From the IMG/VR virus record IMGVR_UViG_3300035210_000151: 64,000 bases of DNA. One strand, written 5' to 3'. The stretch comes from a virus (lineage: Duplodnaviria > Heunggongvirae > Uroviricota > Caudoviricetes). The notes beneath the pieces are model-generated. The model ran no database searches. It saw only the letters and a list, made by a program, of their open reading frames with translations, and had not been told where the DNA came from. Positions 11,137 through 63,481 of this stretch are shown one piece after another (position 1 is the stretch's first letter; each line of letters opens with the position of its first letter). A program made the translations under genes and the position numbers.

Positions 11137-11841
11137 ATGATTTCAGTTGAGGGCTGGGTAGAGCGTAAAGATAAACGCATTGAATTTTTCAATAACAATC
11201 GTAAAGTCATTTCAGCTATGGTTCAAAAAGCTCATCGTGTAAATTTAATGCCAGAAGCTATCACCCTTGCCAGCAATCATGACATTTTTGGGGGCAGTTT
11301 CTTTTCTGATGCCGTTTTCAATAGTTGTGCCTATATTGCTAAAGTCAGTAAAGATGAATTAGCTTTTTACAGAACGATTTACAAACATTCCCAACACAGC
11401 AATAATAAATGTTCGTCTCCACTAAAAATTGAAACAACTCTGAAAAACGAGTATTTTCGTCAATATTGTGACCGTGTGCTGGCGGTATTTTCAACGTTTT
11501 ATGAAGAAGTGAATATCGTTTGGATTACTTCAGGTGAAATTGAAGGTGATGTCACTAGTTTTTTTAGCAAATTTGTTACACCAAGCTATAAGATTAATGA
11601 CAACTATCTCAAATTTGTGGGTGAACGACCACGCTATAAAAAATTTGATAATGTTCCTGATTTCCTTAACATTAATGAATTTAATTTCATGAACAACGAT
11701 TCTGATTATTTCATGAATACTTTTTTTGATAGATTTAACACCCGAATTATCCCTGATGAACCTGATCTTAAATTAAATAAGGATATGGATTTACAGACAT
11801 TGAAAGATAGGTTGACGCTTATTTCTATGGTAATGATTTGA
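11137..11841 (+). CDS. hypothetical protein, MxxI C-terminal motif; paralog of 11861-12547
   Basis: Ends LTLISMVMI; shared ELxFxRxxYxHS and FYExVxIVWI. Confidence 0.8.
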   Translation: MISVEGWVERKDKRIEFFNNNRKVISAMVQKAHRVNLMPEAITLASNHDIFGGSFFSDAVFNSCAYIAKVSKDELAFYRTIYKHSQHSNNKCSSPLKIETTLKNEYFRQYCDRVLAVFSTFYEEVNIVWITSGEIEGDVTSFFSKFVTPSYKINDNYLKFVGERPRYKKFDNVPDFLNINEFNFMNNDSDYFMNTFFDRFNTRIIPDEPDLKLNKDMDLQTLKDRLTLISMVMI

Positions 11842-11860
11842 ATCATTATTAGGAGGTTAT

Positions 11861-12547
11861 ATGTTTATGCTTGATGGTTATACAGAAGAAGCTGATACTG
11901 ATGAGCGTTTTAGGTTTCTTTATAATGAATCCAATCTTAACTTGATTACTCATTTTATTGAGAACGCACATAACATTCAATTACCCCGTGATGGCATTGT
12001 TATTGATGAAAATGATGATATTTTAGCTATTGATTACTTTGATAACAGAACTTTTAATAATCATGTCACTGTTGCTAATGTTAGTCCACGAGAACTTTCA
12101 TTTTTTAGATCTGTTTATCGACATTCAATATCACAAGAAAAAATCAGTATTGACTATAAACCTAAATACTTTTCAGAATATTATGAAAGAATAATTGCTG
12201 TTTATTCTAACTTTTATGAAGATGTTGAAATTGTGTGGATTAGCAATGGTCAAATTGAAAATAATACTAATAATGATGTAATGCCAACCTATAATATTCA
12301 AGATAACATTTTAAAAATTATTGGTATTAATCCACGCTATAGTGTATTTAAAGATATTCCTTATTTTATTCAAATGAATGAAATCAATTTTAATAATAAA
12401 AGTGGATCGGATAACTTTTTGGATCTTTTCTTTGAACGCATTAATCAACACGTAATACCAAAAAATGTTGATATTGAACTTCATAGATTAACTGACATTG
12501 ATACATTGAACGAGCAGCTTGTTCTTATTTGTATGTGTATTGTTTAA
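11861..12547 (+). CDS. hypothetical protein, MxxI-type C-terminal motif
   Basis: Ends LVLICMCIV; RBS AGGAGG. Confidence 0.8.
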   Translation: MFMLDGYTEEADTDERFRFLYNESNLNLITHFIENAHNIQLPRDGIVIDENDDILAIDYFDNRTFNNHVTVANVSPRELSFFRSVYRHSISQEKISIDYKPKYFSEYYERIIAVYSNFYEDVEIVWISNGQIENNTNNDVMPTYNIQDNILKIIGINPRYSVFKDIPYFIQMNEINFNNKSGSDNFLDLFFERINQHVIPKNVDIELHRLTDIDTLNEQLVLICMCIV

Positions 12548-12629
12548 TATTAAAATATAATTTTCTTTTAATAAATTGACTTATTTTATTGTTGATGTAA
12601 GATGCTCATACAAAAAAATGGAGATTATA

Positions 12630-13268
12630 ATGAAAATTAAATTAGGTAGCATTGCTAAAGTAGTTTATCCACTTATTTTAGGCTGGTCTATTTTCTTTTT
12701 GTGGCGAGTTTCAACTATTGAACAAATAGTTAAACCTATGTATTGGCCTTTTTTGATTGGTATCATTTTAAGTCTTTCTATTCTTATTGGTTTTTTCTTT
12801 TTTGGTGGATTATTTGCTGTTGATTCTCGGAAAGACAAACTAAAATACCTTTCATTACTTGCCATTTCTTTTGGAGCATCAAGCATAGCTCTTATTCAGT
12901 ATACAGATAATTCAATATATGAAGGCAGGTATGCTAATTTGGAAGATTCGATTCACTATTTTAATAAAAACAAAAATTATCTAACCAGTAAGCCATATGC
13001 TGAATTTTTGCAGGCAAAAGAATCATTAGACGTTACTAAATTAAAAGAATACACAAAAAGTATTGATAACCTTATCAGCATCGACAAAAACCTTTCAATG
13101 ACACTGGTGCTAGTCAAAGAAACTGTAACTAGTTTCAATATTAACTATAAATTTAATGAAATCAATTCAGATAACTTTGTTTCAAAAACTGAATACAATG
13201 CATTTAGAGATTATATTTTAGAACACTCAAAAGGAAATGAACGAGTCGCTTTGGTAATGGCTCATTAA
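12630..13268 (+). CDS. membrane protein (3 N-terminal TM)
   Basis: GGAG RBS; three hydrophobic segments then soluble domain. Confidence 0.75.
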   Translation: MKIKLGSIAKVVYPLILGWSIFFLWRVSTIEQIVKPMYWPFLIGIILSLSILIGFFFFGGLFAVDSRKDKLKYLSLLAISFGASSIALIQYTDNSIYEGRYANLEDSIHYFNKNKNYLTSKPYAEFLQAKESLDVTKLKEYTKSIDNLISIDKNLSMTLVLVKETVTSFNINYKFNEINSDNFVSKTEYNAFRDYILEHSKGNERVALVMAH

Positions 13269-13378
13269 AATCTTTCGATATTAAATAGAAGACTGTCTGA
13301 CAGTCTTTTTTATTTTCAGTGTCCTTGTTTAATTCAATAAATAGAGTATTATTTATAGATGTAATCATCGGAGCTTTA

Positions 13379-18723: not shown

Positions 18724-20166
18724 ATGATTAAGCGAAAAAGTAAAAGTATCGAAACTGAACATAAAATAAACCTTCATCGTCATTTCACAATGAGTGAATA
18801 CCTTGCCCTACACAATACTGAGGATTACAACATTGTTGACTGCAATAGTCTTGAAGTTAACAGAGAATCTTTAGTCAGTTTTATTGACGATTACTTATTA
18901 AAAAAATATACTCAAGTCATTGATAATAAATTAGCCATAGCTTATGGTGTGGATAAAAAATATTCTTATTTTGATTTGTTTGAATATGTTCTTAATGTCA
19001 ATAAGCTTGTCCATCATTCAAAGATTTATTTCATTAAAGAACTAGGTTTTAGAGAGCTTTATTATGCTTTAAAGAACTTTAATGAAGTCTCTACTTACAA
19101 AGAGGGGATGTTTTTTGAATTGGGCTACAAAATTCATAAAGGTTTGATTAAATATAATGAAGTTTACAAAAACATTCAAGAGATTGTTATTCAAGAAGCT
19201 CAGTTAAGACGGGACAATAAAGTATTGCTTTCCACAATGACCATTCCAGACATGAATGAAGCAGAGATTGAGGCTGTGTCTAATCGTTCGCTACCGATTG
19301 TCCTCCCTGATTTAAATAATACCTATAACGACCATTTAAACTATCTTAATGATGACACAAAGAAAAAGTCTCTTCAATCATCAAAGATTCTTCATGCTAA
19401 TTCAAAATTGAAGTCTACTATTCTTGGATATAAAGAGAAAAAAGGCTTCTTTGGCAACGACACCAGCTATCTGGTTGAGAAGGCTCCCTTCACTGGTTTT
19501 ATGTATGGCAGTCATTATCATAGTAGCGGATACTTTCAAAACTTTATGTATCAATCCATTTTTAACAAAAAAGGATTTATCTATTTTAATTTTGGATCAA
19601 CTGGTATGGAAACCTATATTAATCATTATGCGTATACCTTTAACGTCATAGATGAAGTTGTTTATGTGTATCATGGCACCCAAGAATTTTATGACCTTGA
19701 TTTAAATGCAATGATTAGAAATAATAAAATCGTGGTTATTCAATTTCCTAATACTGAGCGTGTTTCTGATAAACTTGTCTTGGAAGGTTACAAGGATTTC
19801 GACAATTTAATTTCAAGCATTACTATTGATAGTTCTTCTGATTATCCTTATTCTATCTTTCTAGGATTCCCAGACAGATATCCTAAAAACTTTTATGATA
19901 GTTTAGATAAATTATCAGATCTAAAAAATCTTGGTTATAGCAGCCTTGTCGTTATAAATCATGTTGATAACGATCCTTTATTAGTGGCTTCTTTTGATTA
20001 TATATTCCTATTGAGAGTTAACGAACCCTCTAAGTTCTTAATGGCTTTATTAAATGGGCAGAAATTTAGCGTAAGGGATGTTGTTAGCATGGAAGATGAC
20101 CATTTTTATTTTTATGCTAATGGCACAACAGATGGTCAATATTATACAGGGCTTCGTTTTCTTTAA
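18724..20166 (+). CDS. degenerate DotL/IcmO/TrbC-like coupling-protein ATPase homolog; paralog of 41037-42578
   Basis: GFIYF, MIRNNKIVVIQFP, IFLLRVNEP, FSVRDVVSMEDDHFYFY follow DotL motif order; no intact Walker A/B. Confidence 0.55.
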   Translation: MIKRKSKSIETEHKINLHRHFTMSEYLALHNTEDYNIVDCNSLEVNRESLVSFIDDYLLKKYTQVIDNKLAIAYGVDKKYSYFDLFEYVLNVNKLVHHSKIYFIKELGFRELYYALKNFNEVSTYKEGMFFELGYKIHKGLIKYNEVYKNIQEIVIQEAQLRRDNKVLLSTMTIPDMNEAEIEAVSNRSLPIVLPDLNNTYNDHLNYLNDDTKKKSLQSSKILHANSKLKSTILGYKEKKGFFGNDTSYLVEKAPFTGFMYGSHYHSSGYFQNFMYQSIFNKKGFIYFNFGSTGMETYINHYAYTFNVIDEVVYVYHGTQEFYDLDLNAMIRNNKIVVIQFPNTERVSDKLVLEGYKDFDNLISSITIDSSSDYPYSIFLGFPDRYPKNFYDSLDKLSDLKNLGYSSLVVINHVDNDPLLVASFDYIFLLRVNEPSKFLMALLNGQKFSVRDVVSMEDDHFYFYANGTTDGQYYTGLRFL

Positions 20167-23363: not shown

Positions 23364-24152
23364 ATGGATATTTCAGAAAAAACAGCCGCTACAATTAATG
23401 ATATTTTCAACAATACTAATGATCCTTTGAATCTAGAATGTCTTAAAGATCCTCTTGTATATCGACAACCTGCACTTAAAGGTGAATATCCTAATTTAAT
23501 TACACATGAGATCCATCACTGCCAGTCATCTTTTGATAACTTGCTACATCTGGCAAGTGAGCGTTTTTATAATGTTAGAGACAGAAACTTTTTAAGTAGT
23601 GATATTTGTTACTTTTTAAACATGTATTTTCAATATGACTATAAACCATTTTTGTTTGTTAAAAATTTTGGATTCTATAAAATAGTGGTTGTTGTCAAAC
23701 CTTTACAGCGAATTGAATCTGATCTTGTTAAAACAGAATATTGTATAGTTGCTAAGCTTCTACTTGATGCAGATAATCAACTGGTTAAACATGCTGATAA
23801 ACCCGTTATTCTTTTATTTGAAGAAAATTGTCAACTCTTTAAATTCTTTAAGTTTCACGAAAACTACTATACACAGATATCGTTAGATAGCTTTGATCAG
23901 TTATCAAATTATTCTGTTGTGTGTAAAAAATACGATCATAGCATTATCGGTAGATCTTATTACAATCATTATTCACTAGATTTCATCCCTGTTAATCGTT
24001 TCCAATTTCGAATAAAAGATAAAGACTATTCATTCGATGTTCTTTTGAACTATGATGATGATTTTAAAAATTACACACTAGAAGAACTCATTAAACACAT
24101 GGCAACACTGGATAAAGAGCACATTGACTTATTAGCGATGTATTTGATATAA
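23364..24152 (+). CDS. hypothetical protein, MxxI C-terminal motif; paralog of 24180-24962
   Basis: Ends IDLLAMYLI; shared YPNLxTxxIxxC, FVKxFxxxKIxVV, AKxLLD. Confidence 0.8.
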   Translation: MDISEKTAATINDIFNNTNDPLNLECLKDPLVYRQPALKGEYPNLITHEIHHCQSSFDNLLHLASERFYNVRDRNFLSSDICYFLNMYFQYDYKPFLFVKNFGFYKIVVVVKPLQRIESDLVKTEYCIVAKLLLDADNQLVKHADKPVILLFEENCQLFKFFKFHENYYTQISLDSFDQLSNYSVVCKKYDHSIIGRSYYNHYSLDFIPVNRFQFRIKDKDYSFDVLLNYDDDFKNYTLEELIKHMATLDKEHIDLLAMYLI

Positions 24153-24179
24153 TAGACTACTTTGTAAAGGTGATTGACC

Positions 24180-24962
24180 ATGAATACAGACGATATTACT
24201 AATCCAACTGCAATAGCTACTGAAGCTGTTGAGTTTGATATACAATATCCTAATTTGTTTACATATGATATTGCGAATTGCAAACAGACATTTCCTAATT
24301 TGTCATTACTGCTCGATCAAGGTTTTAAACCCGTCAAGTCGGTAAGTGATGAAATTATTGATCTTTTCAAACGGGATGAGCTTTTCTTAAATTTACAAGT
24401 CTCTCAAAATGTCTTTGTTAAAGAGTTCGATTATTTTAAAATCATGGTGGTTCTTTCTATTGCTCCATCAAGAGTTGAATTCCCAGACTTATTGCCAACC
24501 AATAATCATCCTTACTACATTCTTGCTAAGGTGCTTCTGGATAAACATGATAATCTTTTAAAAAAACTTGAATATGATCTACCTTCGATGACATTTTATC
24601 GTAAAGAAGGCGGTATATCATCAAATAGAAGCAATGTTATTCTAGACAGTTATTATACTTTCTTTGATACTCATTATGCAGTGACAGATATTGAAGAATT
24701 TGATCACTACAATTCTAAGTATTATTTTGTTTTCAGAGAATACAATCATAACATTATTGCGACCGCTGTTCACTGTGATTCAGCGATTGAACTCATTAGT
24801 TTGAAAAACAGCACATTTTACATGAATGGGATAGTGTACAATCCCGATATTTTGTTTGAAATTGAAGGCACCGTAAAAGGTAGCCATTTTAGAGATTATC
24901 TTGATTGTCGAATTTCGATGACACAAGATAAGCTTGATTTGTTAGCCATGACCATGATATAA
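24180..24962 (+). CDS. hypothetical protein, MxxI C-terminal motif
   Basis: Ends LDLLAMTMI. Confidence 0.8.
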   Translation: MNTDDITNPTAIATEAVEFDIQYPNLFTYDIANCKQTFPNLSLLLDQGFKPVKSVSDEIIDLFKRDELFLNLQVSQNVFVKEFDYFKIMVVLSIAPSRVEFPDLLPTNNHPYYILAKVLLDKHDNLLKKLEYDLPSMTFYRKEGGISSNRSNVILDSYYTFFDTHYAVTDIEEFDHYNSKYYFVFREYNHNIIATAVHCDSAIELISLKNSTFYMNGIVYNPDILFEIEGTVKGSHFRDYLDCRISMTQDKLDLLAMTMI

Positions 24963-28834: not shown

Positions 28835-28963
28835 TGTATCATATTTTTGTTATTAAAAAAGAACATTAATTATTCATTTTCTGTTTCCGTTAAAATAGAT
28901 ATCTATTGATTCTAGTTTGTGTTTTGTGGTAAAATAAGACAACTTTTTAATGAGTATTTCCTT

Positions 28964-32999: not shown

Positions 33000-34007
33000 A
33001 TGAGCAGTTTGGCCCATTTTTGTAATCGTATTGGTATTGACAGCCATCTGTTACGAGTTATCAAAAAAGACAATATCCTTTATAACAAAAAAACCGCTGA
33101 ACCTCTTTCTGATTGGGTTATTTTTAATGCTGTCAACAATCCTATTCAAGACAGCTTAATTTTCCATAAATTTAGAGACGATGAAAACTTCTATACAGAG
33201 CCGTATTCATTCGTTGCTAATAATCTTCCGATTATGCCTAGAAATACAATCCATCAAAAGGCTACGAAAGAATCAACGTTCCAACGTCATAATAATCAAC
33301 ATTCAATCATTGTTGACAATCAGCCCTACTTTACGAATCTTTTTAATAAAGCGTGTGAAGGTGTTTCAGATTACAAAATGATTTATCCTTTTGAAGATTT
33401 TGGCAACTTTTCGTTTAGTATTGATTTCAGGTCAGAAGTGCTTACACTAAAACGCATTTCAACCAGTTTGGTCAATCGCTCAAATTTGGATGTGCTAGAT
33501 GCAGATAATTACAGTTATGCAGCTCGTTTGAATTTATATCATGGGGCTAATCAAAAAATGCATTTTTCTCCCCACTACATTACAGACTTTTCAGATGACA
33601 TTAATCGTAAGTTAATGGTTATTAATCATGCTGTTTATGATTTATGGCAAGATTTATCTGATGTACCGGGATTTTTGAAATCGAGTATTTATTCATTTCC
33701 AAATGCTACGCATAAATTAAAAGGTCATTACTTTACTATTACTGACACTGGATCTGGTTTGGATATGAACTTGGATAGCTTTTTCAAATTCACCATCAAT
33801 TTTGAAGCTTCCATGAAGCTAGCAAAACAATTCATCAAACGATATAATAATTATAACGATCCCATTGCGTTACATGTGATGAAGATGCTTAATATTATTA
33901 ATCCAGTTTCTCTTGATTTAATGATGGCACAAGATCTTTATGACTTCTATAATGACATTGAAGCTTTTGAAAATTATATTAAAGTATTTGAAATGACCAC
34001 TATTTAG
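33000..34007 (+). CDS. hypothetical protein, MxxI C-terminal motif
   Basis: Ends YIKVFEMTTI. Confidence 0.8.
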   Translation: MSSLAHFCNRIGIDSHLLRVIKKDNILYNKKTAEPLSDWVIFNAVNNPIQDSLIFHKFRDDENFYTEPYSFVANNLPIMPRNTIHQKATKESTFQRHNNQHSIIVDNQPYFTNLFNKACEGVSDYKMIYPFEDFGNFSFSIDFRSEVLTLKRISTSLVNRSNLDVLDADNYSYAARLNLYHGANQKMHFSPHYITDFSDDINRKLMVINHAVYDLWQDLSDVPGFLKSSIYSFPNATHKLKGHYFTITDTGSGLDMNLDSFFKFTINFEASMKLAKQFIKRYNNYNDPIALHVMKMLNIINPVSLDLMMAQDLYDFYNDIEAFENYIKVFEMTTI

Positions 34008-34019: not shown

Positions 34020-34868
34020 ATGTTTGTTATGGAATACCGAAAGCCATTAAGTGAACTGGGACAAGACAGTCGAAAGCTTTGGCTTGAAAAAGATATTGCT
34101 GCCTCGCCATCATTTTTGGTCAATGACCTCTTGAAAATTTTTAATCATCATGATATTACACCTTTCTTTTCAAGATCAACAGGAGTTTCTTTCAAATATT
34201 CAGACAGTGATACATTTCTTATCAGAGATGTAGGACAATTTAATACCTTAACTAAAAAATTGTTAGATCCTCACTTTAAATATGGTATTCGTGATTCGCT
34301 GAATAAGTTGACTCCAAAACTTATGAATATTGATAATTTTCTGAAGCCTGATATGATTTCAGGTTTTTATGACATGTTGTTTGATCGTAGTCGCTATTAT
34401 AAAACAGTAGTGGTTAATCTTAATCCAGCCGCTACAACCATTCATGACATTGACTTTCTGGATATTTATTATGACAGTCATTACAGTTTATTTCCGTCAG
34501 CAAATAAGCCATTTTCTAAAAAAGGACCAACTTATACAAATAGAATAGGTGTTTGGTTTAGAATTTATCTTAAACCAGAAGCATGCAGTTTTTCTGTCCA
34601 TAAAGAAAACATTAACTGTATGGCTCAGCATCCGCTAGATGAAACGGTTCGTGAAGATATTAAACTAACAGACTTGAACAAAAAAAAGACCAGTCAGTAT
34701 TTTGTAAACAGTATTGAATATCATTTTAAATTTCATTATGATGATTTTGATTCAGCACTTATTTTGTATTTGGATTCAAAAAGGGATGAACTATCAAAAA
34801 AACTAGGCTATGAGGTCACAGTTGTTGATCGTCATATGCTTGACCTTATCAATATGACGCTTATTTAA
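34020..34868 (+). CDS. hypothetical protein, MxxI motif; triplet family with next two genes
   Basis: MFxxxYR, WLxxD, RD, LGY; ends LDLINMTLI. Confidence 0.8.
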   Translation: MFVMEYRKPLSELGQDSRKLWLEKDIAASPSFLVNDLLKIFNHHDITPFFSRSTGVSFKYSDSDTFLIRDVGQFNTLTKKLLDPHFKYGIRDSLNKLTPKLMNIDNFLKPDMISGFYDMLFDRSRYYKTVVVNLNPAATTIHDIDFLDIYYDSHYSLFPSANKPFSKKGPTYTNRIGVWFRIYLKPEACSFSVHKENINCMAQHPLDETVREDIKLTDLNKKKTSQYFVNSIEYHFKFHYDDFDSALILYLDSKRDELSKKLGYEVTVVDRHMLDLINMTLI

Positions 34869-34886: not shown

Positions 34887-35768
34887 ATGTTTGTTAAACC
34901 TTACCGATCTCACGTAACACAAATGAATGGAATGACTCCAAAACTTTGGTTGGAACGTGATCTTAATATGGCTCCACCTAAACTGGTAACGTCATTAAGA
35001 GAGCATTACAGTCGTTTTAATAGTGATCTCCTTCCGGTTTTGAATACAGCAACCAGTGTTTCTTTTCAGTATGCTGATTCTAATGAATATATTGTTAGAG
35101 ATCTTGGTTACGCCAGTATTATTATGAAATCTTTGCTAGATTTAAAGATTACGGGTGGATTTAATAATAAAATAGATTCAATAGTCAATAAGCTGTCACG
35201 TATTGATAAATTTATAGGTGTTAATAAGGGTGGGTTATTTTACCAAATATTAAGTCGTCAAACCTATGTTCGATCAATTGTTGTTGGTTTAAAAAATGGT
35301 GCTGATTGCATTAGTGATATTGAATACGTTGAACTTTGTTATGATAACAAACCAAATATCATTCCTTTTAATAAGCCCATTGCAAAGAAATTTCCAGTAA
35401 GAACTAAACGAACAGGTGTTAAACTTAAACTTGAAGACAATAATGTTGAGAATACTAAAGTTTATAGAACAGGGGTTAAAATACGACTTTATCTGGAACC
35501 CACAATAGCGAGCTATATAGTTAAAAAAGAAAGTGTTAATTGTATTGAAGACATTACATATTTTGACAGTAGAAATCCGGCACAAATGAGTGATTATCTT
35601 TTGGACAGTACAGAACATCATTTAAATGTTTATCATAAAGATGTTGATGATGAATTAGTTTTAGCTTTTCTTGAAGTGAATAAAGAACGATTAAGTCAGA
35701 AGTTTGGTTACACTGTTACACATATAGATAAATCTATTCTTGATATTATTGAGATGGCAATTTTTTAA
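34887..35768 (+). CDS. hypothetical protein, MxxI-type motif; triplet family
   Basis: Ends LDIIEMAIF; internal RTGVK duplication. Confidence 0.8.
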   Translation: MFVKPYRSHVTQMNGMTPKLWLERDLNMAPPKLVTSLREHYSRFNSDLLPVLNTATSVSFQYADSNEYIVRDLGYASIIMKSLLDLKITGGFNNKIDSIVNKLSRIDKFIGVNKGGLFYQILSRQTYVRSIVVGLKNGADCISDIEYVELCYDNKPNIIPFNKPIAKKFPVRTKRTGVKLKLEDNNVENTKVYRTGVKIRLYLEPTIASYIVKKESVNCIEDITYFDSRNPAQMSDYLLDSTEHHLNVYHKDVDDELVLAFLEVNKERLSQKFGYTVTHIDKSILDIIEMAIF

Positions 35769-35830: not shown

Positions 35831-36691
35831 ATGTTTTTAAAACCTTATCGTCATCTATTGCTAGATGAATCAATTAAAAGTCATGAAGCTTGGTTGCTTA
35901 AAGATATGGATGCAGCTCCACAGAATCTATTACAATCTTTTATCACCCATGTAGAAGCAATCCCTTCAGATACCATAAAATATTTTGTTCGACCTGCTTT
36001 AAAACAAATGGTGAGTGGCAAGAAACCTACTGACATCTCTTTGCAGTTTTCTGGAAATCACGACTTTATTTTACGTGATTTGGCTTTTGGTGAAACTATT
36101 GTCAAATCGCTTTTATCTAAACATATAGACAAAGAAATTAATGAGTATATCAATATTTTTTTTGATAAACTAAATAATGTTGATTATTTTTTAAATGGCA
36201 CGTATAATCGTGATTTTAATAAAAATAACATGCATTATCATAAATCATTTGTTGTGGGACTTAATCAAAAAGCTACTAGTATTGATGATATAGAATATAT
36301 TGATGTCTTTTTTGATAGTAAACACGATGCAATTCCAACCAGTAAAAAATTAAATCTATGTCCAGAATGTGTTAGTCGAAAAGGTATTGCATTGCGGTTT
36401 AATTTAAAATTAACACCATCATCATTTAGAACTAATGAAGAAACTGTTAACTGTAGTTCAGTGGGTGATGGATCTCAATACAACACTATTACTGATTGTT
36501 CTGGTGCTTTTCATAGCACTTATATTCTCAACAGTACAGAATATTATTTTGATATGTATATTAACGATATTGATAATGTCATGATTAGCTACCTTGAAAC
36601 TCATAAAGATGTATTGGCTCAGCGACTAGGTTATATTCCTGATGCTATTGATAAAGATATATTAAAAGTTATTGATATGGTTGTTATTTAA
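35831..36691 (+). CDS. hypothetical protein, MxxI motif; triplet family
   Basis: Ends LKVIDMVVI. Confidence 0.8.
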   Translation: MFLKPYRHLLLDESIKSHEAWLLKDMDAAPQNLLQSFITHVEAIPSDTIKYFVRPALKQMVSGKKPTDISLQFSGNHDFILRDLAFGETIVKSLLSKHIDKEINEYINIFFDKLNNVDYFLNGTYNRDFNKNNMHYHKSFVVGLNQKATSIDDIEYIDVFFDSKHDAIPTSKKLNLCPECVSRKGIALRFNLKLTPSSFRTNEETVNCSSVGDGSQYNTITDCSGAFHSTYILNSTEYYFDMYINDIDNVMISYLETHKDVLAQRLGYIPDAIDKDILKVIDMVVI

Positions 36692-36699: not shown

Positions 36700-37689
36700 A
36701 TGAATCAGATTGAAAAAGAATTATTATTACAATTATTAAATATTGATGAAAAGAATATCAACTACTATTTAAAAAACAACAATGTTTCTCATATGGATAC
36801 AGGTATAGTCGATCTGAGTTTTCTTTTGTATTCTTGTTTGAAATCAGGTTTAACGGATGTTCAGATTGTTTATAATCAAACTACTGATGTTGTAAGTTTT
36901 AAATCATATCTCCGTTCCATAGAAAATATTGATTTTGACCGTTACGAAATTATCAAAAAAGATTTACATCTTTTTTATAAGGGCATTTCTTATGTCATTA
37001 AGGATGCTGGGTTGTATCTTTTTGATGAGCCTACTTATTTACAAATGTCATTGAATGAAAATAACTCAGGACTTCATACAGCTACTTATAGAACTAATAA
37101 ATATATGACTAATGTTGGCCCATCACTTATGTATCGTTTGGTTTATATTGGGTATCCAAAAATAGGTGGATATGTTGATGATGAATTTGATTTCCAGTAT
37201 GAGCATTCTTTTGACGCCCTTGAAGAACTCGATGAAAAAAACTATTTTGTAACAGACGCTCAATTAGATCATAATTTCAAGATCACATCAAAGTATTTAA
37301 CACAAAAGAATTCTAAGAAACTTGATAAAAAATTAAATATTTACAAAGATAGTTTATCTTTAATTACGAAAGGTTCTAAAATCAATGAATATTATTCTCC
37401 AACTAAAAGTAGGATTACTTTTTTCATTAATGAAGATAACGAATTAGATTTCGATCTAAATATGCAATTTAATCATAATCTATATAGCTATTCTGCTTTA
37501 GAGCAAATAGACAAAATTATTAACTACAAGAAACATTTTGAATCGAATTTTTTTATCCATTTTCTATCGTCTTTTGAATCAATTTTTATAGAGTATTTTA
37601 AGAAAAATGATTTTCTTATAGATGTGAGTATTAATTGTGTTGACGATTTATTAAATTATAGAAATTTGATGGGAATGGCTAAAATTTGA
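36700..37689 (+). CDS. hypothetical protein, MxxI motif
   Basis: Ends YRNLMGMAKI. Confidence 0.8.
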   Translation: MNQIEKELLLQLLNIDEKNINYYLKNNNVSHMDTGIVDLSFLLYSCLKSGLTDVQIVYNQTTDVVSFKSYLRSIENIDFDRYEIIKKDLHLFYKGISYVIKDAGLYLFDEPTYLQMSLNENNSGLHTATYRTNKYMTNVGPSLMYRLVYIGYPKIGGYVDDEFDFQYEHSFDALEELDEKNYFVTDAQLDHNFKITSKYLTQKNSKKLDKKLNIYKDSLSLITKGSKINEYYSPTKSRITFFINEDNELDFDLNMQFNHNLYSYSALEQIDKIINYKKHFESNFFIHFLSSFESIFIEYFKKNDFLIDVSINCVDDLLNYRNLMGMAKI

Positions 37690-37786: not shown

Positions 37787-38575
37787 ATGAAAGCTAAAGT
37801 TGATTTAGATATAGAAGTAAAAAAATATTTCATTATTTTTTTTGAACAGCATTTCTCAATAACGCCCATTTATAAACGTATTGATAAAGAAAATGCTTCA
37901 TTTGAAATCGTTGTGGATAATAATAGTGAACTTTTCATTGTGAAGTATGCAAGCCTATTTGCACAAAAATCAGCTTTACAAATACGTTCGACAGCAAATC
38001 CTGCTTTTCTTGAAAAAGTGTTCAATCTATTATTTGACAATGAACAGATTAATTATAAGCAACGATTATTATTTATCCTTGATAGTATTAATGATGTAAA
38101 TGCTAAATTTAAGTTCTTCAGTCAAATTGATTTAGACAGCACACCATTTTTTTCGTTTAAGTCTTCAATAGATAAAAAAGATAACAGGCTTTATTATAGT
38201 TTGTGTACTAAACGATATTTTAGAATGCAGGTTAATAGTAATTTATATAACGTCACTGAACGAAGTGCTCACTTTTTAACAGGACGGTTTGATTTAGATT
38301 TAAATGTTAAAAACACTCAGATTGAATTTAGATGCCAACTTACTTCAAGTAGTTTAGACGAATATGCGGTTGATAGTGTAATTATGATTACAGTTGCATT
38401 GGACAAATTCGAAAAATCAGTTAAAAGATGTAAGAAGCAAATGATATCTCTTATACTGGATGAGTGTTTTGCTGATATTGTTGCTGACCATGATATCTCA
38501 TTAAAAAAATTGCAGGCCATGTCAGAAGAAGAAATTAAACCTTATGCTGATTTGGTTTATATGTCGAGGATTTAA
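37787..38575 (+). CDS. hypothetical protein, MxxI motif
   Basis: Ends YADLVYMSRI. Confidence 0.8.
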   Translation: MKAKVDLDIEVKKYFIIFFEQHFSITPIYKRIDKENASFEIVVDNNSELFIVKYASLFAQKSALQIRSTANPAFLEKVFNLLFDNEQINYKQRLLFILDSINDVNAKFKFFSQIDLDSTPFFSFKSSIDKKDNRLYYSLCTKRYFRMQVNSNLYNVTERSAHFLTGRFDLDLNVKNTQIEFRCQLTSSSLDEYAVDSVIMITVALDKFEKSVKRCKKQMISLILDECFADIVADHDISLKKLQAMSEEEIKPYADLVYMSRI

Positions 38576-38577: not shown

Positions 38578-39366
38578 ATGAAACAATTCTTAAATTTAGA
38601 ATTTCCAAAGATTGGTTTACTCAGCCATATCATGCCACAGTTAAAAGATTATAGACTGGATGAAGAACGTTCGTTTTATGATATTGTACCGAACCGTTTT
38701 AAAGGTAATATTAGACGTTCTTTTCTGAGAATTCATAAAGAAACTCATTACGTCTCTTTCCTTGGCTCAAACCTAGCAGATAAGCTCTTTCTTTTGTCAT
38801 CACTAGATTACCTTCCACTTGATAACAACTATATCTTGGAAATGTTTAATATCATCTATACAGCAGCCGAAAAATATAAAATCTATGACCCACGCAAGAA
38901 CAAGAGTCATCAGAAAAATATATTAAATAGGTTGAACAATAAAAACAAGCTTGAATTTACATCTCGTTTCAAAACTCATTTTGATGTTATTGGCATGTTG
39001 TCGAGTAAAAGAAAATATCGAGATCTTGTGATGAGTAGACAATATCTATTTAACGAACAATGCCAATTAACAGAAGTTTATTTATTCCAATTACCTATTC
39101 CATACCCCGATTCTAATGAGACACTTTTCAATGTAATGATTACGCAATTAAATGGAGTGTGGCATATCAATTGTGAACAAATTAAGCAAAGTCCCGATGG
39201 TTACATTGGCGTTGATTATTGTTTTTCTGATTTAGAATCCTTTTCTTTTTTGATTAACAATGAATTTGCTACTCATTATAAATCAGTGATTAAACATAAC
39301 CTTGATATAGACACTGATGTGCTTAATGAAGATTATGTTTCACTTTTGAGAATGATGGTAATTTAA
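38578..39366 (+). CDS. hypothetical protein, MxxI motif; paralog of 43394-44194
   Basis: PNRFKGN; ends NEDYVSLLRMMVI. Confidence 0.8.
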   Translation: MKQFLNLEFPKIGLLSHIMPQLKDYRLDEERSFYDIVPNRFKGNIRRSFLRIHKETHYVSFLGSNLADKLFLLSSLDYLPLDNNYILEMFNIIYTAAEKYKIYDPRKNKSHQKNILNRLNNKNKLEFTSRFKTHFDVIGMLSSKRKYRDLVMSRQYLFNEQCQLTEVYLFQLPIPYPDSNETLFNVMITQLNGVWHINCEQIKQSPDGYIGVDYCFSDLESFSFLINNEFATHYKSVIKHNLDIDTDVLNEDYVSLLRMMVI

Positions 39367-40265: not shown

Positions 40266-40838
40266 TCAAATCAATGCCATTTTTAATACTTTGTCATCTA
40301 TTTCTACGTTTTCTTTTATATCTGTAATAAATCTATGAAATTCTTTTAAATCACTAAAAATATAAAACCGTTGTTGTTCTTCATTGTTTTTTAATACTTT
40401 GTTTAATTGTAGCTTTCCATCATCCATCAATTTAAATAATACAAAAAAATCAGCTTCGACTTGAATGGTGTAAGTATCTTTTGTCAAGTTTACTGAATAG
40501 TTATTTAATTTTCCATAATAGGTAGTGTCTATATTGAGTTTAATCATCTCTAAGAATATATCATGTTTCCTATTTTGAACTTCCTTATAAATATTATCAT
40601 TTAATACTTCAATGTAATCTATAAGTTTTGAATCTCTGTTTTTATTTTCAATTCGATCCGCTATCAGTTTTCTTTTAATTGTTTCTAATTTAAAATCTTC
40701 AAATTCATAATCATAGTCTACCAAACCCATGCTCAACGATAATGAATTGAATTCAATCCCTAAATCTAGATTGGGTATCATTATATATTTTAATGATATA
40801 AATGTATTGTATTTACGACATTGATTTAAAAAATTCAT
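40266..40838 (-). CDS. hypothetical protein, MxxI motif
   Basis: Ends DDKVLKMALI. Confidence 0.75.
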   Translation of the reverse strand: MNFLNQCRKYNTFISLKYIMIPNLDLGIEFNSLSLSMGLVDYDYEFEDFKLETIKRKLIADRIENKNRDSKLIDYIEVLNDNIYKEVQNRKHDIFLEMIKLNIDTTYYGKLNNYSVNLTKDTYTIQVEADFFVLFKLMDDGKLQLNKVLKNNEEQQRFYIFSDLKEFHRFITDIKENVEIDDKVLKMALI

Positions 40839-41036: not shown

Positions 41037-42578
41037 ATGGATATGAAAGCAGGTATGCTTGAACCAAGGAACATGTATAAGAATTATACACTCAGTCTTT
41101 ATTTAGCCATCACTCCGAAACGTTTGAACGTTACGGGTTTAAATTGTATTGATACTTTGACAGGTATGATTGATAAAGAAGGGGTTTCATCACTTACTGA
41201 TATGCTGGTTAAATTGTATAGCCAACCTGTCAGTCAAAAAATAAAGTCCATTTATGGTGTGGGTCATTATAAAACTTATTTTGATCTTTATGATTTCGCC
41301 ATAAAATCACATAAACACATTCATTTGAACCTTATTGAATTTCTTAAAGAAGAGGGGAAACGTGAATTTTATTATGCCTTGAAGAATGTCAACGAATCCA
41401 TGAACTATAAAGAAGGTGCATTATTTAGCCAACTTTCACTTCTTCACAAAAATAAGCTAACACGGGAAGAATTTTTAATCTGGACGCAAGAAGTTGTTGA
41501 CCGAGAAGCTAAAAATAGACTGCAAAAAGACCTTATTACACGAAGACTTGTACAAGCAGAAGCAAACCATGCCCAAGTTATAAAATCGACCACTGTTTCA
41601 GTCATTATTCCAGTACCTTCTTTTGAACCAAAAAGTTCAAGCTTTAACGATGGTGCTGTGGATGTGAACATTTTAAAAGAACGCAATGAAGCTAGAGCAA
41701 AATTTACATCAATGTTTGCCCCCTACAAAGGTGGTATAGATTTGGTATTAGGATATCAAGAAAAAGGCTTTTTTCAAAAGAAACACAATTGTTTAAATTT
41801 AAATATACACAATAGTCAAGAAGGTATTATTATTGCTGGGGAAGATTCTGGCCCGAAAGAACTGCTACGTTCCTATATCTATCAGTCCATCAGTCAATCT
41901 AGTGGATTATTACTCTTTTCGGCTCTCTCTGATAAGTCTACTTTGACCTATGTGTTTCAGGTAGCTAAACATTTTGATATTGTGGACGATGTGCATGTAT
42001 TCTATTATGGTTCTGATGAGTTATCCACATTGACCATCAATGATTATATTAAATCCAATAAAATTGTATTAATTTTGTATCCAGAATTTCTAGGCACTAC
42101 CAGTAATGAAGAAAATCTTATTAAATGCTATCAAAGTATTAATTCTATTATTTCTAATGTGAGCGTCAGTAATATTAATAAAGGTGCCACAAAGTTTCCA
42201 TTCAATATTTATTTCAATGAACTTTCATTTCCAACTTATATAGGAGAAGAACTTAGAAAATTGATAGCGAACTTATCATGTTTGCATATACACAATGTTA
42301 ACTATTACATTGTTAATGAAAGCTTAACATTACTCTATTCTGAATTTAGTCCAGATATTTTTAATCATATCAAGAATGTCATTATTCTTAATAATGAATC
42401 TGGTAAAGAAATCTGTCAATATTTCGACACTCAAAAATTAAAACCTGCTGACTTTTCAGCATTAGAACCGCTAGAATTTTATTATTTCTCTGAAAATGTT
42501 TTGGTTAATTCTCGTAAATTCAATGGGATTTATATGCCAATTGATATTGATGTAAATCTCGATGATCACCTAAATTAG
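41037..42578 (+). CDS. degenerate DotL/IcmO/TrbC-like coupling-protein ATPase homolog lacking the all-alpha domain
   Basis: IIIAGEDSGPKE (decayed Walker A), QSSGLLLF, DDVHVFYY, NKIVLILYP, PFNIYFNE (decayed Walker B). Confidence 0.6.
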   Translation: MDMKAGMLEPRNMYKNYTLSLYLAITPKRLNVTGLNCIDTLTGMIDKEGVSSLTDMLVKLYSQPVSQKIKSIYGVGHYKTYFDLYDFAIKSHKHIHLNLIEFLKEEGKREFYYALKNVNESMNYKEGALFSQLSLLHKNKLTREEFLIWTQEVVDREAKNRLQKDLITRRLVQAEANHAQVIKSTTVSVIIPVPSFEPKSSSFNDGAVDVNILKERNEARAKFTSMFAPYKGGIDLVLGYQEKGFFQKKHNCLNLNIHNSQEGIIIAGEDSGPKELLRSYIYQSISQSSGLLLFSALSDKSTLTYVFQVAKHFDIVDDVHVFYYGSDELSTLTINDYIKSNKIVLILYPEFLGTTSNEENLIKCYQSINSIISNVSVSNINKGATKFPFNIYFNELSFPTYIGEELRKLIANLSCLHIHNVNYYIVNESLTLLYSEFSPDIFNHIKNVIILNNESGKEICQYFDTQKLKPADFSALEPLEFYYFSENVLVNSRKFNGIYMPIDIDVNLDDHLN

Positions 42579-43393: not shown

Positions 43394-44194
43394 TTAAATT
43401 TTAATCATTTCTAATAAAAGAAGATAATCTTCGTTATAATCGACTTTTTCTTCATTTAGCCATTTTTTCACTGCAGCTTGGTATCTGTCTAAAAAACGTT
43501 CAGTAAGCGATTTTTTTAAGCATTCTGGATTGGTCACGTCTTCATTGGCTCCATTTTCTGTTTTAGTCAGATAAATCATTGTTTTTTCTTTGTTATGCAA
43601 TATGGATACTGTCATTTTAAAAAGACCTTTCATGGGAAATTCTAAGGTGTGACAAGGCAGAATGGTCAGATCATCAGCCATATAATAATGTTCGCTCAAA
43701 TAAAGCTGTCCATTAATAGATTTACTACGTCCAGTGGTCATTTTACCCACAAGTCCATATTTTAAACCTACTTCAATCTTATCTTGAAGTCTATTCGGAT
43801 TATCTAACCATTTTTCTAATTTTTGGGATGTCTTCTGCATGTTATGATGGTCATAATACTTGTAATAATGAGCGATTTCATACACTGTCTTAAAAGTGTC
43901 TAGAACGAGTTTTTTATTGATAGGTGCTTTATTAAATTTATCAAACAAAACTACTTGTTCTTCTACTGTCCCACCTAATAACATTACCAAACTATCTTCC
44001 CTATCAATGTGAAGGCTTGCTGATGATGGATTGCCTTTAAATTTATTAGGCTTAATGCTGTAGCTGGCAGATGTATAATAGTTATATAGCTCTTGAAATT
44101 CTTCATCTTCTTCTGTCAGCATATAATTGCTAAGATTACTTTTCACGAATTTAAGTAAATCTATTTTTTTAATATTGCACTCGAAATACTTCAT
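43394..44194 (-). CDS. hypothetical protein, MxxI motif; paralog of 38578-39366
   Basis: PNKFKGN; ends NEDYLLLLEMIKI. Confidence 0.8.
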   Translation of the reverse strand: MKYFECNIKKIDLLKFVKSNLSNYMLTEEDEEFQELYNYYTSASYSIKPNKFKGNPSSASLHIDREDSLVMLLGGTVEEQVVLFDKFNKAPINKKLVLDTFKTVYEIAHYYKYYDHHNMQKTSQKLEKWLDNPNRLQDKIEVGLKYGLVGKMTTGRSKSINGQLYLSEHYYMADDLTILPCHTLEFPMKGLFKMTVSILHNKEKTMIYLTKTENGANEDVTNPECLKKSLTERFLDRYQAAVKKWLNEEKVDYNEDYLLLLEMIKI

Positions 44195-50356: not shown

Positions 50357-50423
50357 AGTATTAATATCCTCTTTTTTAAGCATACTAGCATTCAAAGAAT
50401 AATTAGCAATATGGATTATGATA

Positions 50424-51041: not shown

Positions 51042-51105
51042 CAGTTAACATCCTCTTTTACAGTATGCTAGCATTAGAATGATAACTTTCAATAGATAGA
51101 TAATA

Positions 51106-51717: not shown

Positions 51718-51719
51718 GG

Positions 51720-52346: not shown

Positions 52347-52363
52347 GATTATATTTATCCTTA

Positions 52364-53556: not shown

Positions 53557-54165
53557 TTAAAATTTAATCATCTCTAATACATCTGTTGTGAACTCAGAGT
53601 ATTCATCAATGTTATTCATGTAAGTAAAAATTTCTTCTGATGTATCGAAAAAATAGTTTTTAAAACAGGTTGTTCTCTTTTTATCTTTATTGTAAATATG
53701 AAGCAATCTAAATTTATCTTCATATTTTAATAAGGTGACTTTATGTATACCACATTCAATAACGACAACATCGTCTGAATATTTTACACCCGTGCATTGT
53801 CTAGCCAGTCCTTTGTTGGTAGGAAGTTCAATTTGTATCAGCAAGGCTATAATTTGAATAGTTTCGTCAATAAGCTTGTCATTCAAAATATTGCCTAGAT
53901 TTTGACAAGATGTTTTATTATTTACCGCATCATTGATAATATGGTCAATTTCTCCACCATCTAATACCTTTAATAAATCAAATACAGTTTTATTGAATAA
54001 TCTTTTTGATTCATAAACAGATTCGAAAATAGCAATAGCGAGTAAGGCTTTGTTATTATCATTATTCATCAGATGATCATTTACGATGTTGATATTTTCA
54101 TACCATTTTTCCATCATCTTTTTGAATGCCCCATGATCTTTAATCTTTCTAGCTCTTGTGCTCAT
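53557..54165 (-). CDS. hypothetical protein, MxxI-type motif
   Basis: Ends TDVLEMIKF; GGAG RBS. Confidence 0.75.
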   Translation of the reverse strand: MSTRARKIKDHGAFKKMMEKWYENINIVNDHLMNNDNNKALLAIAIFESVYESKRLFNKTVFDLLKVLDGGEIDHIINDAVNNKTSCQNLGNILNDKLIDETIQIIALLIQIELPTNKGLARQCTGVKYSDDVVVIECGIHKVTLLKYEDKFRLLHIYNKDKKRTTCFKNYFFDTSEEIFTYMNNIDEYSEFTTDVLEMIKF

Positions 54166-54232
54166 TAAGATCTCCATATACAGAATAAAATTTTGTCTAT
54201 ATTATCACATTATCTTAAAAATATCAACTTAA

Positions 54233-57684: not shown

Positions 57685-57777
57685 TTGATATTCAATTCGG
57701 TATGAAAGATGATTAAACTTGTCTTTCATGTCGTCATCCTGTATAATGCAGTCATTAAACTATTTGAGGCTATCATC

Positions 57778-59218: not shown

Positions 59219-59229
59219 ACATTATAGTG

Positions 59230-61227: not shown

Positions 61228-61300
61228 CAAAATTCCAGATTGCAAAAAACGCTTTGATTTGCTATAATGGCGACACCTTAAAAAGAACGGAGATTGCACC

Positions 61301-61663: not shown

Positions 61664-61679
61664 ATCTTGTGATTAAAAG

Positions 61680-61701
61680 AAGCCTCTTCGGAGGCTTTTT
61701 T
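61680..61701 (+). terminator. intrinsic terminator (UUCG loop)
   Basis: AAGCCTC-TTCG-GAGGCTTTTTT. Confidence 0.8.
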
Positions 61702-61756
61702 GTGCTTGAAGATTGTTGTAAAAAATGTTATTATATATCTCTAATGAGGATAAATT

Positions 61757-62734
61757 ATGCACCAAAAGAGCCGTTCCTACCAAGACATTCAAACTATTCT
61801 TACTGAACATTTCGGTGACCGTTCAATTAATGCTGGTGACGTTTCACTGGTTGGTTCCGTTTTTGGTAAAGAAGATGTCATTCATCTTATTCATGACGTG
61901 TTAAACAACCCAGAATTGCTTCATAAGGTTGCTAATCGCTCGTACACCCATGCATTAGGCTTCGATAAAATTGTCCTGATGGATTTGCGTAAGGATTCAC
62001 CTGACATCTCACAAAAGACCCAACTACGTCTTCATATTTGGAATCCTGAAAATACTGGTGCTCTCCCTATTGTAGAAGCCTTACATGAACATAGTTTTGA
62101 TTTCGTATCGACGGTTCTCACTGGTCATCTTGAAAACCAACAGTTCCTGTTGAGTCCGCTTTCTAAACGAGAAGAAGCTATTCTGGAAAAACTTCGTGTT
62201 GTTATTACCCAAATCACACCCGACGACTTGAAGTTCATCAATGACCAAATGGAAATTGTTGAAGCCTTGAAACTTTCGGGTGTGGGATCAAGTCAATTTC
62301 ATGATTTGAACATGCATGAAACCATTGATCTTGATAGAATTAATGATTTGACTGGATTCTCTTATAATGAAATATTGCTACTTTGCTCTATTGAAGGTCA
62401 TTATGTCAGCAACCGTATTTCAGGTGAGCGTCAAGCCTACAAGCATGTGCTTAAAGATTATGTCTCATTGACACCCTTCTGTGCGATGAGCCTTGATGAA
62501 GGTGATTCCTACTTCCACCCCTACCAGTTGCCGCATCGTTTGTATTATGACAACAAAATTTTGAACTCAACTATTCTGGTTACCACAGAAGTTCCCTCAA
62601 ACCCAGAAGGTGGTTCATTACAACGACCTACTTATGTTCAAAAAGATGAGCAGAGTTATGACAAGATTGTGTTAACATCTGAATCGTTATCAAAGATCTT
62701 GACTGATTACCTTGATTATTTGGGAACCCATTAA
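61757..62734 (+). CDS. cupin-fold protein with helical insert
   Basis: HALGFDKIVL, LRLHIW, HEHSFDFVSTVLTG, distal PHRL. Confidence 0.6.
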   Translation: MHQKSRSYQDIQTILTEHFGDRSINAGDVSLVGSVFGKEDVIHLIHDVLNNPELLHKVANRSYTHALGFDKIVLMDLRKDSPDISQKTQLRLHIWNPENTGALPIVEALHEHSFDFVSTVLTGHLENQQFLLSPLSKREEAILEKLRVVITQITPDDLKFINDQMEIVEALKLSGVGSSQFHDLNMHETIDLDRINDLTGFSYNEILLLCSIEGHYVSNRISGERQAYKHVLKDYVSLTPFCAMSLDEGDSYFHPYQLPHRLYYDNKILNSTILVTTEVPSNPEGGSLQRPTYVQKDEQSYDKIVLTSESLSKILTDYLDYLGTH

Positions 62735-62803
62735 GAAACATTGAAAAGTCTCCATTCTTGGAGACTTTTGTTATGGTTTGATTGAAAAGTAAATAGGAGT
62801 GTT

Positions 62804-63481
62804 ATGAGATATTGTATAAGCGATCAAGATCGAACTCACATTGACCATTTGAAATCACACATGCCAGCCATTATTGGTGATGAATTAAAAAAAGTGGTAA
62901 AGACCAGTAAGTTTGAAGATACTTATCGAAGCAGAGCTTTTAAAAAACCTGTTATTATTAACAAAAACAATCTCAGTGAAGATTCTTTATTTAAATTAAC
63001 ATTTAGAGAATTTCTTCGTATTGAAAATGGCTCAATTGTCTACACTAAAACACCGAATGATTACATTAATAAGATGATTGATAATGCTATTTTAAAATTT
63101 AATTTATTTAAATCATTTGTATACAAAGAGATAAAGACAGGCAAGCTTCATAGCCCTGATGGTTTCAATACGTTGAAGTTTGATTTAATTTTACATATAC
63201 ATGCCTATGCTGATAGCTATAGCATCATTCAATTGCAAGTTAATTCTTATTATAGCTTGTTGGTCAGGGATTATCAAAAGTTCTATATGTATATCAAAAA
63301 CAAAGAATTCGCCAATAATGCTTATATTGAAATACGCTATGACGCACAAGGCGTTGAACTATCCATTAGTAACCTTAGTCGATTCATTAAAGTGGTTGAA
63401 GAAATTTGGGAATCCCCGTTAGACTTCAATAATTTAAATATATCCGCCATGAAGGCAACGACTGAAATGTTATTGATTTAA
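62804..63481 (+). CDS. hypothetical protein, MxxI motif (variant)
   Basis: Ends KATTEMLLI; AGGAG RBS. Confidence 0.75.
   Translation: MRYCISDQDRTHIDHLKSHMPAIIGDELKKVVKTSKFEDTYRSRAFKKPVIINKNNLSEDSLFKLTFREFLRIENGSIVYTKTPNDYINKMIDNAILKFNLFKSFVYKEIKTGKLHSPDGFNTLKFDLILHIHAYADSYSIIQLQVNSYYSLLVRDYQKFYMYIKNKEFANNAYIEIRYDAQGVELSISNLSRFIKVVEEIWESPLDFNNLNISAMKATTEMLLI

Follow-up and report, generated by a model that had tools for sequence, protein, structure and literature searches.

C-terminal docking and secretion signals are already known as a kind. The SOCS-box and F-box (PRANC) adaptors of eukaryotes and poxviruses, which run to hundreds of paralogs, join a variable recognition body to a short conserved terminal helical module for one common machine, and the clamp-binding tails of T4 gp43, gp55, and gp33, the SSB-Ct, and the SspB XB tail are terminal hydrophobic plugs that sit in a fixed register on unrelated proteins and serve one hub. 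The Dot/Icm substrate signals given for Legionella in the text of PMC7251119 comprise the terminal hydrophobic signal of RalF, the E-block read by DotM, and the FxxxLxxxK helix read by LvgA, and the text of PMC10025392 gives a positively charged C-terminal Arg/Lys cluster as the signal of VirB/D4-type type IV secretion systems (T4SS). The size reported for the pMEGA megaplasmids is 1.58 Mb (10.1101/2025.09.30.679422). Here, we analyzed a 64,000-nt stretch of DNA (the window) from the IMG/VR record IMGVR_UViG_3300035210_000151. A reading of its letters alone (the sequence-only reading) had proposed that 15 of the encoded proteins share a seven-residue C-terminal signal with Met four residues from the end (Met(-4)), a hydrophobic last residue, and hydrophobic residues at -7/-6. 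The results showed that this tail is real, element-wide, and under protein-level selection, and some shared partner probably reads it. The reading we prefer, with slightly less than even confidence, is that the tail is a docking helix on variable recognition proteins, read by one intracellular partner encoded by the element. No description of a Met(-4) tail or of its consensus was found in the open-access literature searched.

All 15 open reading frames (ORFs) were present in the window translation with the last seven residues claimed for them, and blastp placed them in 10 families, as had been estimated. Met(-4) was found in 18 of the 76 window ORFs taken as genes (binomial p~1e-12 given that Met makes up 2.6% of residues), and each of the remaining 14 positions at the chain end had Met in 0–5 of them. 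The combination of Met(-4) with I, F, V, or L at -1 occurred in 16 ORFs, with 0.58 expected; the 16th of these, at 57709 (...ESMAKL), lacked the rest of the motif and did not score with the profile. After the collapse of blastp paralogs, the tail remained enriched, being present in 10 of 60 families with 0.46 expected (p~4e-11). These p-values are post hoc, and the true test is the replication in related records together with the absence from 855 control ORFs. Hydrophobic residues at -7/-6 were counted in 14 of the 15 carriers, again as proposed, and the descriptions of the carriers as AT-rich (GC 0.299 vs 0.344; p=1e-4) and devoid of signal peptides (no signal-peptide-like or transmembrane-like stretch in any of the 15) also held. 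None of the 15 matched Pfam (E<=0.01) or PHROGs, and the tail was found on none of the Pfam- or PHROG-annotated window proteins, in agreement with the statement that no recognizable enzyme is tagged.

The multicopy GSSSWCI family of the window retrieved two IMG/VR records, G001 (437 kb) and G002 (181 kb), and also metagenome contigs of 1,859,102 (Ga0308158_10000001, locus L080), 1,539,155 (Ga0247725_1000001, locus L089), 677,834, 604,313, and 520,353 bp. The window was syntenic gene for gene with L080 and with locus L081, the orthologs in L080 being 41–96% identical. G002 is apparently a fragment of this 1.86-Mb contig, as loci L109/L113 show the same matches and tails as L019/L005. Part of the 1.86-Mb element was read, and its loci were sampled non-randomly. 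Met(-4) occurred in 102/531 ORFs of G001, 45/193 of G002, and, in three further related records, 64/245 of G006, 46/395 of G007, and 58/258 of G008, where about 2.1–2.5% would be expected. We also used a 14-position tail profile with a cut-off score of >6, the training set of which included one 20-kb piece each of G006–G008. Scores above the cut-off formed a clear upper mode of 277 among 1493 ORFs and were seen in none of the sampled internal windows; with G006–G008 included, there were 383 carriers among 2280 ORFs. The profile called 85/508 ORFs in G001, 45/189 in G002, 46/245 in G006, 34/395 in G007, and 48/258 in G008; for the 1.86-Mb contig it called 43/193 in the other loci, and for the 1.54-Mb contig 18/143. 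By extrapolation, each replicon would encode several hundred carriers, about one protein in six. The controls, 63 loci with 855 ORFs from distant holders of GSSSWCI- or DEDDh-like genes and from other large phages, gave 9 ORFs with Met(-4) and no profile call. The carriers tended to lie in tandem arrays, with 23, 25, and 27 adjacent pairs in G002, G006, and G008 vs shuffle maxima of 18, 17, and 16, respectively.

The position and the residues of the proposed seven-residue motif stood, whereas its length did not: the true motif has hydrophobic residues at -13, -9, -7, and -6, acidic residues from -15 to -11, and often a second helix from -30 to -21. Among the 315 ORFs with Met(-4), the last residue was I in 52%, Y in 14%, F in 7%, and V in 6%, and -7 was L, V, or I in 87%; the preferences elsewhere were E/K/D/S at -5, L/I/F at -9, D/E/N/S at -11, L/F/T/I at -13, and E/D at -15. 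In this unbiased count, -1 was I, Y, F, V, or L in 84%, and the corresponding figure for the profile carriers (363/383) is one for which the profile selects. Hydrophobicity was maximal at -1, -4/-3, -7/-6, -9, and -13, and Pro and Gly made up 1.2% of the last 14 residues vs 5.7% in the bodies, and the tail is therefore predicted to be an amphipathic helix of about 14 residues. Its register was strict: the profile matched at the exact terminus in 277 of 1493 ORFs, with one additional residue in 10, and with two to five additional residues in 0–2, and a score of >11 was reached in just 13 of 517,367 internal windows. A comparison of the tail profile with the PDB sequences gave a best E value of 0.81.

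Conservation pointed to the protein level. In 62 homolog pairs with a body identity of 42%, tail identity was 82% at -1, 69% at -7 and -13, and 65% at -10, and it fell to 37–39% at -2, -12, and -15; the 98% identity at -4 is partly circular. The conserved positions were -1, -4, -7, -9/-10, and -13/-14, plus -25, -28, and -30, so that many families may have a helix-loop-helix end. Homologs found by the body alone kept Met(-4) in 253 of 271 cases, which shows that the tail is retained while the bodies diverge, and most of those without it had a degenerate (I, A, or F at -4) or shifted tail. The pN (proportion of nonsynonymous differences) was 0.14 in the tail vs 0.23 in the body. The genes often lie head to tail, as would suit a conserved DNA or RNA feature (a repeat, a cassette site, or a translational-coupling signal) or a virion-packaging tag, an explanation to which we assign next to no probability. 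Codon identity given an identical residue was 0.48, equal to the codon bias (0.45 expected), so synonymous codons were free to vary, as was also seen under the window tails; stop codon use was that of the non-carriers, and the DNA downstream of the window carriers was unalike. Thus, the DNA reading is already contradicted. Recent tail swapping at the DNA level was not seen either, the best cross-family match being 54 of 75 nt, and the upstream motif search gave no carrier-specific promoter; the enriched words were mostly tail codons of the preceding carrier. As regards packaging, which the sequence-only reading had listed as an option, no capsid, terminase, or portal family was found among the proteins scanned with Pfam and PHROG, which covered part of the element, and this option was left without support.

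The carriers had a median length of 252 aa (5–95% range, 188–352 aa), with a coefficient of variation of 0.20 vs 0.65 for the other ORFs. Signal-peptide-like starts were found in 13/383 carriers vs 218/1897 others, and transmembrane-like stretches in 30/383 vs 303/1897. The 383 carriers fell into 186 body families by blastp; an earlier set of 277 carriers had given 156 families, or 140 after merging with hidden Markov models. No Pfam match at 1e-3 was obtained for 150 family representatives (of 176 non-window families), and at 1e-5 the non-Met(-4) proteins of at least 240 aa in G001 and G002 gave 94 of 221, as counted from the listing. Compared with L080, eight carrier pairs had a nonsynonymous divergence (dN) of 0.19–0.46 and a ratio to synonymous divergence (dN/dS) of 0.08–0.31, and their neighbors had values of 0.02–0.52 and 0.03–0.27, with dS near saturation. 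Judged by these alignments, the carriers are real, selected, and mostly faster-evolving genes. A 215-aa domain encoded by a gene of its own in G001 was found in G002 fused to a complete 34020-type carrier (L078:17353-18831), which shows that body and tail travel together.

Two families were modeled. The model of the 38578 protein, built from 70 sequences with a predicted local distance difference test (pLDDT) score of 93.6, has two alpha+beta domains, a long helix (residues 219–242), a loop, and the tail helix (251–261). The model of the largest family, which has 31 sequences and is absent from the window, has a pLDDT of 91.7 and shows a helix, an eight-strand meander, and a helical end, with the tail inside a last helix of 33 residues. 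The two differ in the order of strands and helices and in their best fold matches, and the two sequence profiles align over the last 15 columns only. The models were compared without superposition, and they suggest that the tail is carried by at least two topologies. A search of 1.84 billion proteins with the 38578 profile gave 55 matches; 44 of these scored >6 at the C-terminus, and the misses were mostly fragments or weak unrelated matches. The best structural matches of the 38578 model were middling and mostly ended before the tail. Its best VIA match (Med17C; Z 8.9, root-mean-square deviation (rmsd) 3.6, 109 aligned, residues 79–235) and that of the second model (DNMT5; Z 6.7, rmsd 3.6, 98 aligned) lie near the background stated for the tool and were not taken as homology. 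In Foldseek, the 38578 model had no PDB match at E<=1e-3, and two matches of the second model were disregarded because of an rmsd of 17–19 Å. An ESM Atlas search with the 34020 and 38578 proteins gave nothing informative.

Since the Met is fixed, one helical face is conserved, and the distance to the chain end is constant across many fast-drifting families, the tail helix would be a ligand for one pocket. Since the carriers vary little in size and no enzyme or toxin domain was found in them, they would be recognition modules rather than classical effectors, and it is this pairing of a ligand-like tail with recognition-module-like bodies that leads us to favor an intracellular repertoire of adaptors or sensors. 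The amphipathic helix would dock in a pocket of one shared element-encoded protein inside the host cell, and the fast-evolving bodies of about 200 residues would be interchangeable recognition modules for that one machine, binding host, phage, or competing-plasmid proteins as targets. Such a repertoire may have grown from limited founders by duplication and rapid divergence of the bodies. The proposal of a dedicated C-terminal address on a repertoire is thus supported by the enrichment after paralog collapse, the retention in diverged homologs, the fixed terminus, and the two predicted topologies, and among the four functions that the sequence-only reading had offered for it (secretion signal, packaging tag, docking peptide, and degron) the docking peptide fits best. 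In the sampled parts, ClpA/B-type and MoxR-type AAA+ ATPases, DnaK, the multicopy GSSSWCI family, and degenerate DotL-like proteins are candidate partners. Large Prok-RING_4/TerD-like proteins, a MoxR AAA+ protein with DUF2201/VWA partners, and a ClpA/B ATPase, all candidate hubs, are encoded at L047:10-2076, L056:6517-8853, and L092:6201-8408.

Several points weigh against a docking helix for a shared partner. No partner protein emerged from the sampled parts, and docking is what we infer. The dN/dS values of the eight carrier pairs, limited by the near-saturation of dS, indicate fast yet purifying evolution and not positive selection. In addition, some families are remote paralogs, as 14 of 666 body-profile pairs reached at least 5% vs 0 of 276 controls (six of the 14 lie within the 38578 superfamily, three of these by construction), so that the earlier statement that the families have no other visible similarity goes too far for some of them. 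An extended, IPSAYDF-type tail also joins families that are separate by blastp, the carrier lengths are narrow, and both models combine a helix with an antiparallel meander. Common ancestry may explain more than is detectable here. The same observations (the narrow length range, the body-only links, and the longer tail in common), as well as the tandem arrays in G002, G006, and G008, would be expected if one or a few hyper-diverged paralog superfamilies had simply inherited the tail as their last helix and retained it for body packing or self-assembly without an outside reader. We regard this as unlikely, because 652 of the 666 body-profile pairs stayed below 5%, and because packing would not require at least 140 families to keep the same Met, always equally far from the carboxylate, while all other positions drift. 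Moreover, the two confident models predict different topologies ending in the same terminal helix, which follows a loop in one and closes a 33-residue helix in the other, and not one fold whose last helix would account for the motif.

The tail could also be a translocation signal of a type IVB secretion system (T4BSS) of the element, with a coupling-complex adaptor reading the helix and several hundred proteins being delivered to recipient or neighboring cells. Indeed, a T4 coupling complex would likewise be one shared partner, which these data do not cleanly separate from an intracellular one. A protein at L071:17093 matched IcmO/DotL (6sz9_A, E 7e-11), two DotL-like proteins of the window matched through a profile (Table 1), PilS and prepilin-type proteins are encoded by the element, and DotM and IcmW are carried by the analogous pMEGA plasmids according to the supplement of their report (10.1101/2025.09.30.679422; PMC12633466). 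The scarcity of signal-peptide-like starts shows that the carriers are mostly soluble, the segment from -20 to -8 is acidic (D/E 21% vs 12%; the net charge over the 20 terminal residues averages -1.5), and the hydrophobic extreme C-terminus of the profile-selected carriers is a RalF-type feature; in Legionella, by the account in PMC7251119, a signal can be terminal and hydrophobic and LvgA reads a C-terminal helix. However, EExxE (E-block) occurred in the last 30 aa of 4/383 carriers vs 28/1897 others, the D/E enrichment being diffuse only, and FxxxLxxxK in the last 60 aa of 16/383 vs 52/1897, which is not a clear enrichment. No toxin, enzyme, or eukaryote-like domain was found by Pfam in the 165 carriers scanned, the proteins with polyvalent-type domains (ART-PolyVal and PBECR5) have Lys-rich ends instead of this tail, the DotL-like proteins look degenerate, and the sampled, incomplete parts contained no intact T4BSS core gene. 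An Arg/Lys cluster of the VirB/D4 type was not seen, since 0/383 carriers matched the Lys-rich pattern and the net charge is negative. Searches for TraG-D_C in G006–G009 (0/4) were negative, and a DotL-like query against viral contigs returned itself only. A type IVB signal, with the DotL-like genes in its favor, is a possible and less probable reading. The DotL/IcmO-like paralogs at 18724-20166, 41037-42578, and L071:17093-18616 lie outside any T4SS cluster.

Non-polar C-termini are degradation signals for Tsp, FtsH, and ClpXP, and the element encodes a ClpA/B-type ATPase and, in G001/G002, several peptidases. The tail might serve as a degron or as a membrane-contact helix that a protease of the host or of the element recognizes, which would keep the carriers short-lived. 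Such degrons, however, are typically short, unstructured, and tolerant of substitution, and do not call for a helical pattern of 14–30 residues with a fixed Met; the tail was also found on no recognizable regulator or enzyme, and we consider this explanation very unlikely.

Table 1. Carriers of the Met(-4) tail and DotL-like genes in the window.
Position	Strand	Feature	Length (aa)	Last seven residues	Remarks
11137..11841	+	Carrier, paralog of 11861	234	LISMVMI	Profile score 22.0
11861..12547	+	Carrier	228	LICMCIV	Profile score 9.2
18724..20166	+	Degenerate DotL/IcmO-like protein, candidate tail reader, context only			Profile including a G002 protein vs 6sz9_A, E 2e-8
23364..24152	+	Carrier, paralog of 24180	262	LLAMYLI	Profile score 18.8
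24180..24962	+	Carrier	260 (from ATG)	LLAMTMI	Orthologs in L080 and L081 keep the tail; extension to a TTG start at 24174 possible
33000..34007	+	Carrier, first of a 7-gene carrier array	335	VFEMTTI	
34020..34868	+	Carrier, family with 34887 and 35831	282	LINMTLI	
34887..35768	+	Carrier	293	IIEMAIF	
35831..36691	+	Carrier	286	VIDMVVI	
36700..37689	+	Carrier	329	LMGMAKI	
37787..38575	+	Carrier	262	LVYMSRI	Weak profile link to the 38578 superfamily (hhalign 17% and 6.7%)
38578..39366	+	Carrier	262	LLRMMVI	Modeled: two predicted alpha+beta domains
40266..40838	-	Carrier	190	VLKMALI	
41037..42578	+	Second degenerate DotL-like paralog, context only			Profile match as for 18724
43394..44194	-	Carrier, paralog of 38578	266	LLEMIKI	
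53557..54177	-	Carrier	206	VLEMIKF	Profile score 9.1
62804..63481	+	Carrier, weakest match	225	TTEMLLI	Profile score 8.5

Pieces of these elements are listed as viral in IMG/VR. Among the proteins scanned (at least 240–280 aa, from part of the replicon; Pfam/PHROG), no capsid, terminase, RNA polymerase, or ribosomal families were found. G001 and G002 encode several aminoacyl-tRNA synthetases, GatAB, DnaK, a ClpA/B ATPase, PilS, ART-PolyVal, PBECR5, TnpB, and multicopy DEDDh proteins, and additional loci of the element family encode MacAB-TolC and prepilin-type proteins. The GC content of the family is about 0.27–0.34, and its DnaK is 66–68% identical to gammaproteobacterial DnaKs; we infer a plasmid-like element of a Gammaproteobacterium. 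Eight peat metagenome runs, all from one year and two of them possibly the source, carried 0.49–0.99 of a 9-kb stretch, and no RNA run was among the sequencing runs listed as carrying it. The GSSSWCI protein had no match in PLSDB or in GTDB contigs and, among phages, matched two distant huge-phage records only, the loci of which lack the tail. The contigs of loci L131, L129, and L135 are further examples of GSSSWCI-bearing elements that do not have it. Scans of GTDB contigs (representative genomes) for the element family, a megablast of window positions 10–34 kb against phages, and a scan of viral contigs for the 34020 family likewise gave no match. A contig of 1,858,324 bp in ENA carries a related protein.

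Further features of the element were observed. The GSSSWCI genes of the window lie at 8212-9981, 26936-28834, and 28919-30907; the family, of about 600 aa, has about 70 copies across the fetched loci, and the gene is often followed by that of a partner family of about 540 aa. At least four K/R residues were present among the last 12 in 34 of 68 GSSSWCI proteins vs 15% of the other non-carriers, possibly a second, basic tail class. A Lys-rich class was convincing by eye, yet the pattern was not enriched overall (54/1897 vs 19/855), and the candidate was rejected. An array of five paralogs at 49748-52996 (- strand), 203–215 aa in length and 29–47% identical, had no Pfam match and ends in a conserved C-terminal helix of its own with an aromatic/Leu/Arg end and no Met(-4). 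Recurrent termini of their own (N-terminal MKYLKxF and C-terminal R-D/E-x-K-L-x-x-I-L) were also seen on many ORFs of the huge phage records LR745206.1 (L001) and LR756502.1 (L002), which are unrelated controls. Arrays of tRNA genes in which those for one amino acid lie together (11 Leu; 6 Ala and 3 Arg; Ser/Tyr) are found at L074:3614-5500, L078:8104-10247, L059:19058-19924, and L066:5947-6020, and one tRNA in this set has a CTA anticodon, a possible amber suppressor. G001 has at least eight DEDDh (RNase-H-like) paralogs (L046:834, L046:6308, L052, L054, L055, L065, and L068).

The 14-residue profile marks 9–24% of the ORFs in five records and none of 855 controls, and thereby gathers a large set of 'dark' proteins into a single functional class; it is also a marker for an element lineage without a match in PLSDB or in the GTDB representative genomes searched. 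If the tail is a docking plug, there would be one machine through which several hundred unknown proteins work, and if it is a secretion signal, the carriers would be a cargo list of Legionella size for a plasmid-type T4BSS. It is conceivable, if doubtful, that the bacterial extrachromosomal elements of this 1.5–1.9-Mb lineage possess a modular adaptor system, a prokaryotic counterpart of the F-box and SOCS-box repertoires. Several hundred fast-diversifying recognition proteins, with more than one fold among them, would then use the Met(-4) helix to plug into one machine encoded by the element, and this machine would destroy, remodel, or export what they bind.

By description, not by sequence, the element resembles the pMEGA megaplasmids of Enterobacteriaceae, as presented in the available text of their report, in its megabase size, low GC, many tRNAs, TnpB, MacAB-TolC, ART-PolyVal, multicopy pilin-like and RNase-H-like families, and many novel multicopy proteins, and the DEDDh paralogs of G001 recall the multicopy RNase H families of pMEGA2/3 (10.1101/2025.09.30.679422). 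In that text, the multicopy pMEGA proteins are largely solenoids, whereas the two carriers modeled here are predicted alpha+beta meanders, and the term 'C-terminal' does not occur in the main text (10.1101/2025.09.30.679422). Unlike pMEGA, the present element comes from peat metagenomes. Its 1.86-Mb contig is larger than the 1.58 Mb given for pMEGA, and the element family itself may deserve description. As in the Legionella Dot/Icm system, so far as the account introduced above describes it, a short C-terminal tail, part acidic and part hydrophobic and predicted to be helical, is shared by hundreds of proteins that a single replicon encodes and that are otherwise unrelated, and DotL-like genes are present. 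The tail described here differs in its near-invariant Met(-4), strict terminal register, and lack of E-block or FxxxLxxxK enrichment, and its carriers are of similar size and lack known effector domains. The likeness to the SOCS-box and F-box (PRANC) proteins may be one of working principle only, a variable body with a terminal helix on an expanded repertoire; the element is bacterial, and there is no sequence similarity (no Pfam match, and a PDB E value for the tail profile no better than 0.8). The carriers share with the T4 clamp-binding, SSB-Ct, and SspB XB peptides a hydrophobic tail in fixed terminal register on unrelated proteins, but whereas those peptides belong to a handful of well-understood proteins, the Met(-4) tail has a different consensus and marks unknown proteins that make up about a sixth of a megabase proteome.

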